The notes beneath the pieces were generated by a model. The model did not search any database and had not been told where the DNA came from. It worked only from the letters and a program-made list of their open reading frames with translations. From assembly GCA_041648455.1 (NCBI GenBank), contig JBAZOZ010000003.1, positions 1 through 56,579 on the forward strand: 56,579 nucleotides of DNA. Reading direction: 5' to 3'. The position numbers were made by a program, and so were the translations under genes. Every line of letters begins with the position of its first letter. Positions within the stretch are counted from its first letter, which is position 1. Shown here piece after piece: positions 5,373-56,446 of the stretch. The DNA comes from Candidatus Pacearchaeota archaeon (GTDB lineage: Archaea > Nanobdellota > Nanobdellia > Pacearchaeales > GW2011-AR1).

Positions 5373-5497
5373 TAATACAGCAAAAATTGTTTTTTGCGTA
5401 AACTCCCTGTTTTAACTCGTGAGAAAGCAAAAACAATTTTTGGAGTGTTCAAGAACCCGAGACACGCCCAGAAATTTATTCCGAGGGTTCTTGACAT
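5373..5497 (+). repeat. 125-nt two-hairpin element, copy 1
   Basis: TAATACAGCAAAAATTGTTTTTTGCG...GCAAAAACAATTTTTGG (about 17-bp stem) plus TCAAGAACCC...GGGTTCTTGA (10-bp stem), ending CTTGACAT. Confidence 0.9.
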
Positions 5498-6991: not shown

Positions 6992-7116
6992 ATGTCAAGA
7001 ACCCTCGGAATAAATTTCTGGGCGTGTCTCGGGTTCTTGAACACCCCAAAAATTGTTTTTGCTTTCTCACGAGTTAAAACGGGGAGTTTACGCAAAAAAC
7101 AATTTTTGCTGTATTA
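6992..7116 (-). repeat. 125-nt two-hairpin element, copy 2 (inverted relative to copy 1)
   Basis: The reverse complement differs from copy 1 at 2 positions. It starts 5 nt after the radical SAM stop and lies 30 nt beyond the PC4-like gene stop. Confidence 0.9.
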
Positions 7117-9895: not shown

Positions 9896-10020
9896 TAATA
9901 CAGCAAAAATTGTTTTTTGCGTAAACTCCCTGCTTTAACTCGTGAGAAAGCAAAAACAATTTTTGGGGTGTTCAAGAACCCGAGACACGCCCCGGAATTT
10001 ATTCCGAGGGTTCTTGACAT
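9896..10020 (+). repeat. 125-nt two-hairpin element, copy 3
   Basis: Near-identical to copies 1 and 2. The variable positions fall in the two hairpin loops (CCCTGCTTT; CGCCCCGGAATTT). Confidence 0.9.
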
Positions 10021-11747: not shown

Positions 11748-12047
11748 TTAATAATTAGATAATAAAGAATTATGCCCAAACTGAATTACTAAATCAATTT
11801 TCTTTTCAATTTCTTTTCCTAAAACCGGCGTATCACAAGCACCATAGCAGCTCCCAAGCCAAATCAAAAAATCAACTTCCTTAGTTTTTTCTTCAAGAAA
11901 ATCCACAACTGCAGTCGCATATTGCTTCAATCCATCAGGAAACTGCAATAAAACAAGTTTTGCTTTATTCTTCTTAATTTCATCTAAAACTTTCTCTAAT
12001 TCCAAATCATATCTCTCGTTTAAATCTTCAATGGTGTAGTTTTTCAT
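11748..12047 (-). pseudogene. dph2: Diphthamide synthase Dph2 remnant (N-terminal ~99 aa only)
   Basis: AKLVLLQFPDGLKQYA...GSCYGACD...VIQFGH matches the Dph2 N-terminus. Full-length archaeal Dph2 is about 330-340 aa, and the ORF stops just after the FGH motif. Confidence 0.6.
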
Positions 12048-12183: not shown

Positions 12184-12585
12184 CTAAAACATTAACTTAA
12201 TTATATAATAACCAATTCCTGTGCTTAATACTCCAAACAAAAATCCATAACTAATTTTCTTCTTTTCATAATTCAAATAAACCAAAGAGCAAATCAATAC
12301 AAGATAAACTAAAACCGCGAAAATTGTGAATATCTTATCATTATAAAACAAAATTGTAAAAACCAATATCACAAAACTAAGTCCAGAATATAAATTACTC
12401 TTAAATAAAAATGTGAGTATTAAAAACAAACCACCTGCAATAGCAAACTGACTAAGATATTCTAAATCATGAATTATCCAAATTCTCACAAGTACAAGTA
12501 CAAAAAAAGGAATACTCCCCAACGCTAAAAAATCCCGTGCAAATTCCTTGCAAATATTTTGTTTCTTCATGAAATAATTAAACAC
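12184..12585 (-). CDS. Hypothetical integral membrane protein
   Basis: 133 aa, four hydrophobic segments. Confidence 0.5.
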   Translation of the reverse strand: MFNYFMKKQNICKEFARDFLALGSIPFFVLVLVRIWIIHDLEYLSQFAIAGGLFLILTFLFKSNLYSGLSFVILVFTILFYNDKIFTIFAVLVYLVLICSLVYLNYEKKKISYGFLFGVLSTGIGYYIIKLMF

Positions 12586-12599
12586 TTAAACTTTAAAAA

Positions 12600-13027
12600 T
12601 TACTCTTTTTTTACTCTCTCAGCTACAAAAGGTAATCCAAAATTAGAAAGCATTTTCTCCAATCTTCTTAAGGTAAAAGCCATTAATTTTAATTTATATG
12701 GACCATTAGGATAAGGAAAACCAGACATGTCAAGAACCCTCGGAATAAATTCCTGGGCGTGTCTCGGGTTCTTGAACACCACAAAAATTGTTTTTGCTTT
12801 CTCACGAGTTAAAGCAGGGAGTTTACGCAAAAAACAATTTTTGCTGTATTAACAATTCCATCAGGAAAAAAATAATATCCTTCAACAATCTTTTTTCCAC
12901 CCCCCTTAACTTTTTGGTAAACATCTAAAAGAGATTTTTGATAAACAAATCCCTTCAAAGCAGAATTACTATTGATAGTACAATAATTAATAGAATAAAA
13001 AGCTTTAGCTATAATTTTCTTTTTATC
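12600..13027 (-). pseudogene. ORF split by 125-nt element copy 4 (about 100 codons once the element is removed)
   Basis: The upstream frame 13027..12852 ends ...VEGYYFFPDGI plus GT. Removing 12727-12851 joins that GT to G12726 and continues in frame as SGFPYPNGPYKLKL...VKKE stop. No ATG at the 5' end (internal TTG only). Confidence 0.5.
12727..12851 (-). repeat. 125-nt two-hairpin element, copy 4 (inverted relative to copy 3)
   Basis: Full-length copy. It supplies the first 34 codons of track ORF 12600..12830, plus the AT of that ORF's internal ATG (residue 35, completed by flanking G12726). Confidence 0.9.
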
Positions 13028-13032
13028 CTAAA

Positions 13033-13041
13033 CTTTAAAAA
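13033..13041 (+). promoter_or_regulatory. TATA-box-like motif upstream of infB
   Basis: CTTTAAAAA is centred about 28 nt upstream of the ATG at 13065. Confidence 0.35.
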
Positions 13042-13064
13042 CAAATCTATATTGAAGAACATAT

Positions 13065-14822
13065 ATGGAACAAAAAATTCGTCAGCCAATTGTAACAGTA
13101 TGCGGGCACGTTGATCATGGAAAGACATCTATCCTTGATTGTCTTAGAAATAGCTGTGTCCAGGAATCAGAAGCAGGAGGAATCACTCAAAAAATTTCTT
13201 TCACTCTTTATCCCATAAATCAATTAAAAAAAGCCTGCCCTTTGATAGAATCGTCCGGGATAAAACTAAACATCCCAGGATTTCTTTTAATAGACACACC
13301 AGGACACGCAGCATTCATAAATTTAAGAAAAAGGGGCGGCAGCCTCGCTGACTTGGCAGTTTTAGTAATCGACATAAACGAAGGAATAAAACCACAAACA
13401 GCAGAAGTAATTCAAATTTTAAAACTAAATAAAACACCTTTCATCATTGCATTAAATAAAATCGATAACATTTCTGGATGGAGAACTGACAAAAATTTAG
13501 GATTAAAAGAATCAATAGAAAAGCAACCGCAAAATGTCAAGCAAATTTTTCAGGAAAGATATATGACTTTAATCGGCTCGTTAAACAGCTATGGATTCGA
13601 AGCTGATTTATTTTATAACATAGAAGATTTCACAAAAAAAATTGCTTTAGTTCCGTGCAGTGCAAAAACAAAACAAGGAATTCCAGAATTAATTATGATG
13701 CTCTGCGGATTAAGCCAGAAATATCTCGGTGAAAAATTAAAACTCGGTGAAGATGCAAAAGGAGTAATGCTTGAAATAAAAAAAGACAAAGCAATAAATT
13801 ATTGCGAAGCAATTCTCTACGACGGAACACTAAAAAAAACAGACGAGATTGCCGTATCAAATTTCGAGGGAAATCCAATTATAACAAAAATAAGAATCCT
13901 AGAAGAAATAGAACCCCTATGCAAAAAATTTTCTCCAAGAACAAAAGTAACAGCGTCGACGGGATTAAGAATTCAATTAATCACTAAAGAAGAAATTCTT
14001 CCCGGAATGCCATTCGAAATTTACCAAAATAATCTCGAAGAAATAAAAAAAAGATTCAAGAAAGAAATTTCAGAAAATATTAAAACAGAAAAGCAAGGAA
14101 TAATTGCAAAAGCAGATTCTTTGGGAAGTTTAGAAGCACTTTTAGTCTTGCTAAATCAAAGCAACGTGCCCGTCGTAAAAGCAGGAATAGGAAGTATAAA
14201 TAAAACAGACATAATCAACGCCAAAGCAAATTTAGACATAAATGAATTAGACGCAGTCATCGTTGGATTTAATGTTAAAATTGATGAAGATGCCGAAGAG
14301 CTTGCAAGAAATAACAAATCAATTAAAATAATTACAGAAGAAGTTATCTACAAATTAATTGAAAACCTCGTCGAATTCAGAAAAGATAAATCTTCAGAAA
14401 TTGAAAAAAGAAGATTAATGGAACTAACAACAATTTGCAAGGCAAAAATTCTGCATCAGTATGTTTTCAGAAACACCAGCCCGGCAATTTTCGGTGTGAG
14501 AATCGAAGCTGGAAAATTAAAATCTGGATTAAATATGATAAATGAAAAAGGGGAAAAAGTCGGAAGAATAAAAAACATTCAATCCGAAAACAAATCGGTT
14601 GAAGAAGCCGCTCAGGGAATGGAAGTTGCAATTTCAATTCCAGGAATAAATTTTGAAAGAGTTTTAGGCGACAGAGAAACTCTCTATTCAGATATTGGAG
14701 AAGGACAATTCAAAAAATTCAAGAAGAACAAAGATTTGCTTAACGAAGGAGAAAAAAGAACCTTGCAGGAAATTAATGAGATTAAAAAGTTTGGAAGTTG
14801 TCTGCGCTTAGGCGCAGTTTAG
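13065..14822 (+). CDS. infB: Translation initiation factor aIF5B (IF-2 homolog)
   Basis: GHVDHGKTSILD, IDTPGHAAF, NKID GTPase motifs. Length and domain order are typical of aIF5B. Confidence 0.9.
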   Translation: MEQKIRQPIVTVCGHVDHGKTSILDCLRNSCVQESEAGGITQKISFTLYPINQLKKACPLIESSGIKLNIPGFLLIDTPGHAAFINLRKRGGSLADLAVLVIDINEGIKPQTAEVIQILKLNKTPFIIALNKIDNISGWRTDKNLGLKESIEKQPQNVKQIFQERYMTLIGSLNSYGFEADLFYNIEDFTKKIALVPCSAKTKQGIPELIMMLCGLSQKYLGEKLKLGEDAKGVMLEIKKDKAINYCEAILYDGTLKKTDEIAVSNFEGNPIITKIRILEEIEPLCKKFSPRTKVTASTGLRIQLITKEEILPGMPFEIYQNNLEEIKKRFKKEISENIKTEKQGIIAKADSLGSLEALLVLLNQSNVPVVKAGIGSINKTDIINAKANLDINELDAVIVGFNVKIDEDAEELARNNKSIKIITEEVIYKLIENLVEFRKDKSSEIEKRRLMELTTICKAKILHQYVFRNTSPAIFGVRIEAGKLKSGLNMINEKGEKVGRIKNIQSENKSVEEAAQGMEVAISIPGINFERVLGDRETLYSDIGEGQFKKFKKNKDLLNEGEKRTLQEINEIKKFGSCLRLGAV

Positions 14823-49110: not shown

Positions 49111-49236
49111 ATGTCAAGAACCCTCGGAATAAATTCCGGGGCGTGTCTCGGGGTTCTTGAACACCCCAAAAATTGTTTTTGCTTTCTCACGAGTTAAAAC
49201 AGGGAGTTTACGCAAAAAACAATTTTTGATGTATCA
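49111..49236 (-). repeat. 125-nt two-hairpin element, copy 5
   Basis: Full-length copy with 1 extra G, starting 11 nt after the DUF192 gene stop. Confidence 0.9.
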
Positions 49237-56322: not shown

Positions 56323-56446
56323 GAGCCTGTAGCTCAGCCAGGTTAGAGCACTGCTCTTATATGAGCTCAATCGATTAAGGTTGATTCTCTCTTGATAAAA
56401 ACTCTAAGAGAGGCAGGGGTCCACAGTTCAAATCTGTGCAGGCTCA
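56323..56446 (+). tRNA. tRNA-Ile(UAU): tRNA-Ile (anticodon UAU) with a 49-nt intron at the canonical 37/38 position
   Basis: Acceptor GAGCCTG/CAGGCTC, D arm GCTC..GAGC, anticodon stem CTGCT/GGCAG, loop CT-TAT-A, intron 56362-56410, T arm CACAG-TTCAAAT-CTGTG, discriminator A, no encoded CCA. Confidence 0.75.

Follow-up and report, generated by a model that had tools for sequence, protein, structure and literature searches.

When a short dispersed repeat is found within a long open reading frame that is restored upon its removal, the question arises whether a gene has been interrupted, whether the intervening segment is taken out of the transcript or whether the open frame is a product of chance. 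This question is posed by the fourth of five repeat copies in the window, by which we refer to the entire analysed stretch of 56,579 nt, corresponding to contig C3 of a genome (G000) of 0.88 Mb with a GC content of 31% that is distributed over 44 contigs and estimated to be about 90% complete. The reading that we favour, with a probability of roughly 0.6, is that copy 4 reflects the insertion, at the level of DNA, of a non-autonomous two-hairpin repeat into a small accessory gene that is probably real. As an event, the breakage or splitting of a small orphan gene by a small mobile repeat would be ordinary. Together with four other gene-interrupting copies, it serves as a reference case for a family of repeats that ultra-small archaeal genomes carry in abundance.

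The frames at this locus, their stops and the ATG at the junction agree with their description in the initial annotation. On the minus strand, a TAG at 13030-13028 precedes a frame that is open from 13027 over 58 codons up to the repeat and that ends with ...KGFVYQKSLLDVYQKVKGGGKKIVEGYYFFPDGI, followed by GT at 12853-12852. In the uncut sequence, this frame encounters a stop after 14 codons of copy 4, and the upstream ORF with its TTG start (12809..12958) thus consists of 49 residues, of which 35 are contributed by the host and 14 by the repeat. Past position 12727, a G at 12726 leads into SGFPYPNGPYKL...VKKE and a stop TAA at 12602-12600. Removal of 12727-12851 leaves 100 codons in one open frame, which from the TTG at 12958 encodes 77 amino acids, and bears out the claim that copy 4 is located in a long frame that is restored upon its deletion. 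The ATG at 12728-12726, from which translation could restart as had been suggested, is composed of the last two bases of the repeat and the flanking G. A second possible product is provided by an ORF of 76 residues with a TTG start (12600..12830) that begins inside copy 4 and continues into the downstream half. Public gene calls list the 76-residue form at copy 4 and, at the copy on contig C14, a 57-residue form that starts from the junction ATG. The coordinates of these and other features are collected in Table 1.

Table 1. Features of the interrupted frame and its surroundings, copies of the repeat in the window and further ORFs that are interrupted by members of the family
Feature	Location	Strand	Description
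Upstream half of interrupted frame	12853..13027	-	58 codons; only canonical start TTG 12958-12956, giving 35 host codons
Downstream half of interrupted frame	12600..12726	-	41 codons plus stop 12602-12600; ends 14 nt before the GTG of the next gene
Junction ATG	12726..12728	-	possible start of a 42-residue product MSGFPYPNG...
Repeat copy 4, core (putative insert)	12728..12846	+	119 nt: TGTCAAGAA, hairpin 1, hairpin 2, right terminus
Variable base	12727	+	A at this copy; probably derived from the host; its complement provides the T of the junction ATG
Hexamer TATTAA	12847..12852	+	TTAATA on the ORF strand; putative host target motif, outside the insert
Membrane-protein ORF	12184..12585	-	133 aa; directly downstream, same strand, operon-like spacing
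aIF5B	13065..14822	+	IF-2-type GTPase; divergently transcribed; edge of the variable segment
Repeat copy 1	5373..5497	-	intergenic, between two radical-SAM genes
Repeat copy 2	6992..7116	+	intergenic, 4 nt past a stop codon
Repeat copy 3	9896..10020	-	intergenic, between divergent genes
Repeat copy 5	49111..49234	+	
TehB-type SAM methyltransferase	L194/L221		same orientation and phase as copy 4; Pfam 2.5e-17, matched in two stretches
NYN-domain gene	L184		same orientation and phase as copy 4; Pfam 7e-12
Lipoprotein-like ORF	L125		same orientation and phase as copy 4
Toxin-like ORF	L211		opposite orientation
78-residue ORF with ATG start	C14:17064-17188 (G000; locus L018:1332-1693)		same orientation and phase as copy 4

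The interrupted frame is located in a variable segment. Of 60 other family genomes, 59 contain an orthologue of the adjacent aIF5B, with identities of 54-77% over their full length and of up to 81% on partial matches, and the interval between this gene and a conserved Dph2-like mini-gene varies in both length and content across the family. A homologue of the membrane-protein ORF on the other side of the frame adjoins aIF5B in one relative. In the window, an ORF of 99 residues on the minus strand (11748-12047) matches only the first 57 of the 302 positions of the Pfam profile for diphthamide synthesis (Dph2), and in relatives the same ORF, of about 100 residues and with an identical end (...QFGHNE.MPSY-stop), adjoins aIF5B; the ORF may be a conserved mini-gene or, alternatively, a split Dph2.

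Copy 4 is part of a dispersed family of mobile sequences that do not carry genes, as had been recognised in the initial annotation for the segment 12727-12851. The genome contains 31 copies detected by BLAST, of which 30 share 93-100% identity, with the remaining one at 85%. All copies in the window other than copy 4 are intergenic, and the same applies to most copies in the genome, which are found in both orientations and whose flanks differ at every copy. Related copies with identities of 70-89% occur, several per genome, in 20 of 300 other family genomes, and a pattern scan of species-representative MAGs has retrieved at least 103 further loci; among the loci listed, nearly all repeat-bearing MAGs are labelled as Nanoarchaeota, Woesearchaeota or Pacearchaeota, and many originate from groundwater. 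An alignment of 16 diverse copies defines two hairpins with compensatory changes at 15 base pairs across both, which have the foot CAAGAA/TTCTTG and a CTAAAG-type loop in common, with counts of G-U versus A-C not separating the two strands as the one that folds. Many subfamilies carry terminal inverted repeats of 9-10 nt (TGTCAAGAA/TTCTTGACA), and in the main subfamily of this genome, to which copy 4 belongs, a degenerate right terminus reads ...TTTTTGCTG instead of ...TTCTTGACA. A search against Rfam gave no match at the gathering score, with the best sub-threshold hit at 21.5 bits compared to a cut-off of 53 bits. Neither the Y1 transposase (PF01797) nor TnpB (PF07282) is matched in this 90%-complete genome, while both profiles find their targets in control genomes, and no full-length parent with a gene placed between hairpin 1 and hairpin 2 is contained among the at least 103 loci listed. 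At the level of titles and abstracts, the literature on MITEs in DPANN archaea yielded no paper on this repeat family.

Although predominantly intergenic, the family also interrupts recognisable genes elsewhere. A search for other copies with long open frames in both flanks has revealed five further cases, four of which agree with copy 4 in both orientation and codon phase. In the MAG H32-bin099_1, the repeat adds 117 nt in frame and without stops at two loci (L194:1757-1880, equivalent to L221, and L125:2477-2600), and both the ORF of the TehB-type methyltransferase, with 228 open codons, and a second ORF run through the element and would be extended by 39 residues each. An open insert whose length is a multiple of three was found only at these two loci and not at copy 4. 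The ORF on contig C14, where the junction TTAATA/TG is the same as at copy 4, contains a CxxC motif on the upstream side of the repeat and an HGFCxxC motif on the downstream side, an arrangement that presumably resembles the motif CxxC...SHGICPxC at the C-terminus of certain signalling proteins; its search in Pfam, 300 family genomes and a large protein collection has identified a single weak relative (E=0.0075), located beside a receiver-domain ORF in genome G129. Within the genome under study, only two of the other 30 copies are spanned by a frame with at least 30 codons on either side, one of these frames being a plausible small gene and the other running through a tRNA gene. A junction ATG of the kind observed at copy 4 is present in 14 of 94 copies, and in 7 of these it opens a long downstream ORF.

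These interrupted genes bear on the exact extent of the insert. The initial annotation had held that the restored frame fixes the boundaries to the nucleotide, but excisions of 125, 122 and 119 nt, all equal to 2 modulo 3, restore it equally well. We have thus compared models in which 1, 4 or 7 nt of a 126-nt repeat model are assigned to host DNA. The NYN gene aligns without gaps to nine intact homologues only if 7 nt are kept (...DIFFYTAELD... versus ...VFYYNAPLD...), the methyltransferase with 7 nt kept matches a 55%-identical orthologue without gaps (TFPFENYDIIIC versus TYNFEDYNIIIC), and in case of the toxin-like ORF the 1-nt model yields a stop. The seven retained nucleotides consist of a hexamer T-N-T-Y-A-A at the right terminus and a variable base at the left terminus, which across copies is found as A in 57, T in 27, G in 10 and C in 3 cases. 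In an alignment of 93 copies from many MAGs, the hexamer is located beside the right terminus in 93 of 93 cases, with letters that vary (TATTAA, TATCAA, TTTCAA, TGTCAA and others), and as judged from the two orthologue comparisons it is probably part of the host gene. A target-site duplication is absent, as had been proposed initially: the flanks of the 93 copies do not contain a repeat, and the alignments of the NYN and TehB-type genes leave no duplicated bases. The insert proper would thus correspond to TGTCAAGAA...TTCTTGACA, with a length of 117-119 nt and without duplicated host bases. For copy 4, the two comparisons made in other genomes and the universal motif favour 12728-12846 as the most likely boundaries, with an insert of 119 nt. 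The host sequence prior to insertion would then have read ...TTAATATG..., with the terminal A of the repeat regenerating the ATG, and the restored frame, ...PDGIVNMSGFPY..., would comprise 102 codons. Under these boundaries the frame reads ...GIVNMSGF... and includes an internal ATG provided by the host, in contrast to the earlier statement that the restored ORF has none. The codon phase that is shared between the interrupted genes does not require a special explanation, since the motif, which on the ORF strand reads TTRANA, would contain TAA or TGA if divided as xxT-TRA-NAx, whereas xTT-RAN-Axx corresponds to codons that are very common in an AT-rich genome.

The central issue concerns whether the interrupted frame is a gene. 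With the core of the repeat removed, a unique segment of 360 nt separates the start codons of the neighbouring genes, and it contains the stop-free frame of 102 codons, a length that only 10 of 5000 shuffles with preserved dinucleotide composition attained; the phase of the excision is one of three possibilities. In a 3-periodic Markov model trained on the long ORFs of this genome, the joined frame scores 0.051 per nt, which ranks it near the 96th percentile among shadow ORFs, where the 95th to 99th percentiles of the latter range from 0.041 to 0.071 and the 5th to 25th percentiles of real genes from 0.033 to 0.066. This value combines an upstream half with a score of 0.078-0.107 per nt, which is typical of the genes of this genome, and a downstream half with a weak score of 0.016. 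The frame extends over nearly the entire strain-specific segment, and its stop is placed 14 nt ahead of the next gene on the same strand.

A search for intact homologues had been advised in the initial annotation, and none was found in any of the collections covered, while the coding score and the rarity of such a frame in shuffled sequence point towards a gene. With the two halves as queries, no homologue of the joined ORF was detected in Pfam. In a set of 5.8 billion clustered proteins, the 76-residue ORF and the upstream half retrieved nothing apart from the respective query and ORFs that overlie further copies of the repeat, and an exhaustive HMMER search of 1.84 billion representatives with the downstream half gave, as other hits up to an E value of 0.001, only translations of tandem repeats. 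Nothing significant emerged for the upstream half in 300 family genomes, for the downstream half in 24 genomes of the family and 16 of the same order or from tblastn of the joined frame on the syntenic aIF5B loci of 29 relatives. JGI metagenome contigs, searched by protein and by a degenerate pattern, did not contain a homologue, and the genome itself contains neither paralogues nor repeated flanks of the locus. A 28-nt match of the upstream half to C4:46887 is located inside a large surface-protein gene and was dismissed as chance. A contig of 411 nt from another groundwater metagenome, run X4, which represents the closest relative encountered, aligns to 12423-12600 with 8 differences and to 13080-13286 with 36 differences, with 26 unrelated nucleotides in between, corresponding to an identity of about 95% on the side of the membrane gene, whose 5' part it covers, and of about 83% on the side of aIF5B. 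Since it joins 12600 to 13080, this contig originates from a relative that lacks the whole 479-nt segment of ORF and repeat. An empty-site allele was not bridged by contigs of four runs, and in the source-like run X1 the contig breaks at the repeat. On balance, the joined frame is probably a real or recently real accessory gene. The insertion into a formerly intact gene, as put forward in the initial annotation, is thus retained as the best reading and as a probable one, the gene being without homologue in the collections searched.

In the most serious competing scenario, the repeat would have settled in non-coding DNA, with both half-frames as accidents of a strain-specific AT-rich spacer (26% GC) whose in-frame junction is a one-in-three coincidence. 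The typical coding statistics of the upstream half are not easily reconciled with this view, nor are the extension of the frame over nearly the whole strain-specific segment, its end 14 nt ahead of the next gene and the fact that only 0.2% of composition-matched shuffles contain a 102-codon frame in 360 nt. The scenario nevertheless draws on the lack of a homologue in any database searched, the related X4 contig without the segment, the poor score of the downstream half and a 5' end that offers TTG instead of ATG as start. It is also in line with the intergenic location of most copies and with the comparable spanning frame of 98+40 codons at another copy that crosses a tRNA gene, which demonstrates that chance frames of sizeable length do occur. 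We regard it as doubtful, while granting it an appreciable weight. Alternatively, only the 42 downstream codons (MSGFPYPNG...) would constitute a gene, with the repeat hitting its start codon exactly, so as to separate TTAATA from TG, the ATG regenerated by the terminal A of the element and the upstream region serving as leader, in which case nothing would have been interrupted. This possibility would be compatible with the host sequence expected under the 119-nt boundaries and with the recurrence of the junction ATG at other copies that was described above. It is improbable in light of the 58 open in-frame codons further upstream, which would be a coincidence of roughly 0.5-1% as estimated from base composition, the weaker coding score of precisely the half that is supposed to be the gene and the lack of homologues of the 42-residue product. 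A still smaller probability is assigned to the assumption that the open frame was a decayed relic, a partial duplicate or a fragment of a pseudogene, and non-functional before the repeat arrived. It originates from the resemblance of residues 3-32 of the upstream half (12932-13021 on the minus strand) to residues 17-46 of the ribosomal protein uL3, a stretch that is located mostly upstream of the only start codon, a TTG. With an unbiased profile of 28 uL3 sequences, it ranks first, apart from uL3 itself, when 13,151 six-frame ORFs from this genome are searched (E=0.016), and its score was attained by 0 of 1000 shuffles. However, this similarity was noticed post hoc, it encompasses only 30 residues and does not extend, with the rest of the frame showing nothing, it has no counterpart at the level of DNA in the rpl3 of the genome, and 100 open codons would not be expected of a relic.

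The initial annotation had also considered that the element might be removed at the level of RNA, as an archaeal intron of the bulge-helix-bulge (BHB) type or by other RNA processing, leaving the gene functional. Such introns are known from tRNA and rRNA and from a small number of mRNAs, for example that of cbf5. The similarity consists in a short structured insert within an ORF whose excision restores the frame, in a lineage whose genome harbours intron-bearing tRNA genes, and it is strengthened by the observation that three sense-orientation interruptions in two other MAGs share orientation and codon phase with the two found here. The latter is, however, accounted for by the TTRANA target motif. 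A scan for the 3-4-3 motif in 1050 pairs of sites around both junctions found 4/4 central helices in 36 of them, which is about the rate expected by chance, and none of the 1050 combines restoration of the frame with a central helix of 4 bp and both flanking helices, the frame-restoring sites being thus devoid of an hBHBh' motif. In the consensus folds of either strand, the two ends of the repeat do not pair with each other. In addition, most copies reside between genes, in both orientations, and each copy has different flanks. Together with the lack of an Rfam family, these observations have led us to abandon removal from the transcript, to which we attach hardly any probability.

For an insertion at the level of DNA, the consequences can be outlined. 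On the strand of the ORF, the repeat would have landed directly after TTRANA, in this case TTAATA, and its 119 nt, not being a multiple of three, would have broken the frame. The upstream part would terminate 14 codons into the repeat, leading to a 49-residue product from the TTG, whereas the 41 downstream codons would be translatable only from the regenerated junction ATG, as 42 residues, or from the TTG within the repeat, as 76 residues. The gene would thus be broken or split rather than spliced. It would have been an orphan, presumably functional, of roughly 79-102 codons that precedes the membrane-protein gene on the same strand, and the latter, which is now located behind the repeat, may depend on read-through for its transcription. 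As for the underlying chemistry, a single-strand transposition of the HUH type, with the enzyme supplied in trans, appears plausible. In a more far-reaching proposal, which we consider rather unlikely, the family would target TTRANA motifs within genes in a fixed codon phase, giving rise either to a translated insert of 39 residues, in case of the 117-nt version, or to the division of one gene into two pieces, in case of the 119-nt version, with copy 4 and C14:17064 as viable splits. The repeat would in this process supply stops for the incoming frame and regenerate an ATG for the outgoing one.

Returning to the insertion of a gene-less mobile repeat, its properties can be related to those of known elements. 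The closest known elements are palindrome-associated transposable elements (PATEs) and other derivatives of the IS200/IS605 family that lack genes. The repeat shares with them its small size (117-127 nt), the absence of genes and the presence in multiple copies, two similar subterminal hairpins on one strand that are conserved as structure and the insertion without target duplication directly beside a short conserved motif, TTRANA, which resembles the far terminus of the repeat itself (TTGACA). Unlike PATEs, it is found in a genome without Y1 transposase or TnpB and without a full-length parent among the at least 103 loci listed, and its hairpin modules also occur separately and in reshuffled form. 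The 9-10-nt terminal inverted repeats of many subfamilies (TGTCAAGAA/TTCTTGACA) distinguish it further from the ends of IS200/IS605 elements. Such inverted repeats are instead a feature of classical MITEs, to which the family also corresponds in size, copy number, lack of coding capacity and the occasional disruption of genes, although it does not generate the target-site duplication of MITEs and although the right inverted repeat is degenerate in the main subfamily of this genome. The repeat is thus best described as PATE/MITE-like and as moving without duplication of its target. A third comparison concerns the Rickettsia palindromic elements (RPEs), whose insertions into protein-coding genes preserve the reading frame. 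The 117-nt version in H32-bin099_1 behaves similarly, being in frame and open in the TehB-type methyltransferase and in a second ORF, where it would add 39 residues. In contrast, the 119 (or 125) nt of copy 4 cause a frameshift and terminate the incoming frame, and this copy is thus disruptive. Different genomes also do not have a conserved reading frame through the repeat.

The described features illustrate that the family enters coding sequence, that it inserts beside TTRANA without duplication and that the insert probably spans 117-119 nt from terminus to terminus, and they suggest that at least one lineage tolerates the repeat as an in-frame insert in an enzyme. For the annotation of DPANN MAGs, it is of practical relevance that gene callers report fragments, such as the ORFs of 76 and 57 residues, which start within the repeat or at its edge. 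The same properties narrow the search for the transposase that moves these elements.

Several observations concern the repeat itself. An exact ATG...TAA mini-ORF of 41 codons on the plus strand of the 126-nt model (12727-12852) was considered as a conserved feature and rejected as incidental, since 20 of 29 copies in this genome keep it open, compared to 0 of 68 in other genomes. Among the matches listed (loci L118-L220), 56 of 109 hairpin-1 modules are not adjacent to a hairpin 2, and while some loci contain a third module of 50-80 nt between the hairpins, others carry hairpin 2 in inverted form or in front. In many subfamilies (e.g. L075:1501-1627 and C32:5224-5348 of G000), the linker between the hairpins is a perfect palindrome, CTTGAGCATGCTCAAG, which would allow an alternative third hairpin to form between the 3' arm of hairpin 1 and the 5' arm of hairpin 2. 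Two copies of G000 (C17:2620-2744 and C7:22859-22983) are situated 1-10 nt away from the 3' end of a tRNA gene. In the window, where ARAGORN does not report a tRNA, Rfam detects one at 56323-56446 with 52.9 bits across 124 nt, and this tRNA is probably interrupted by an intron of some 50 nt.
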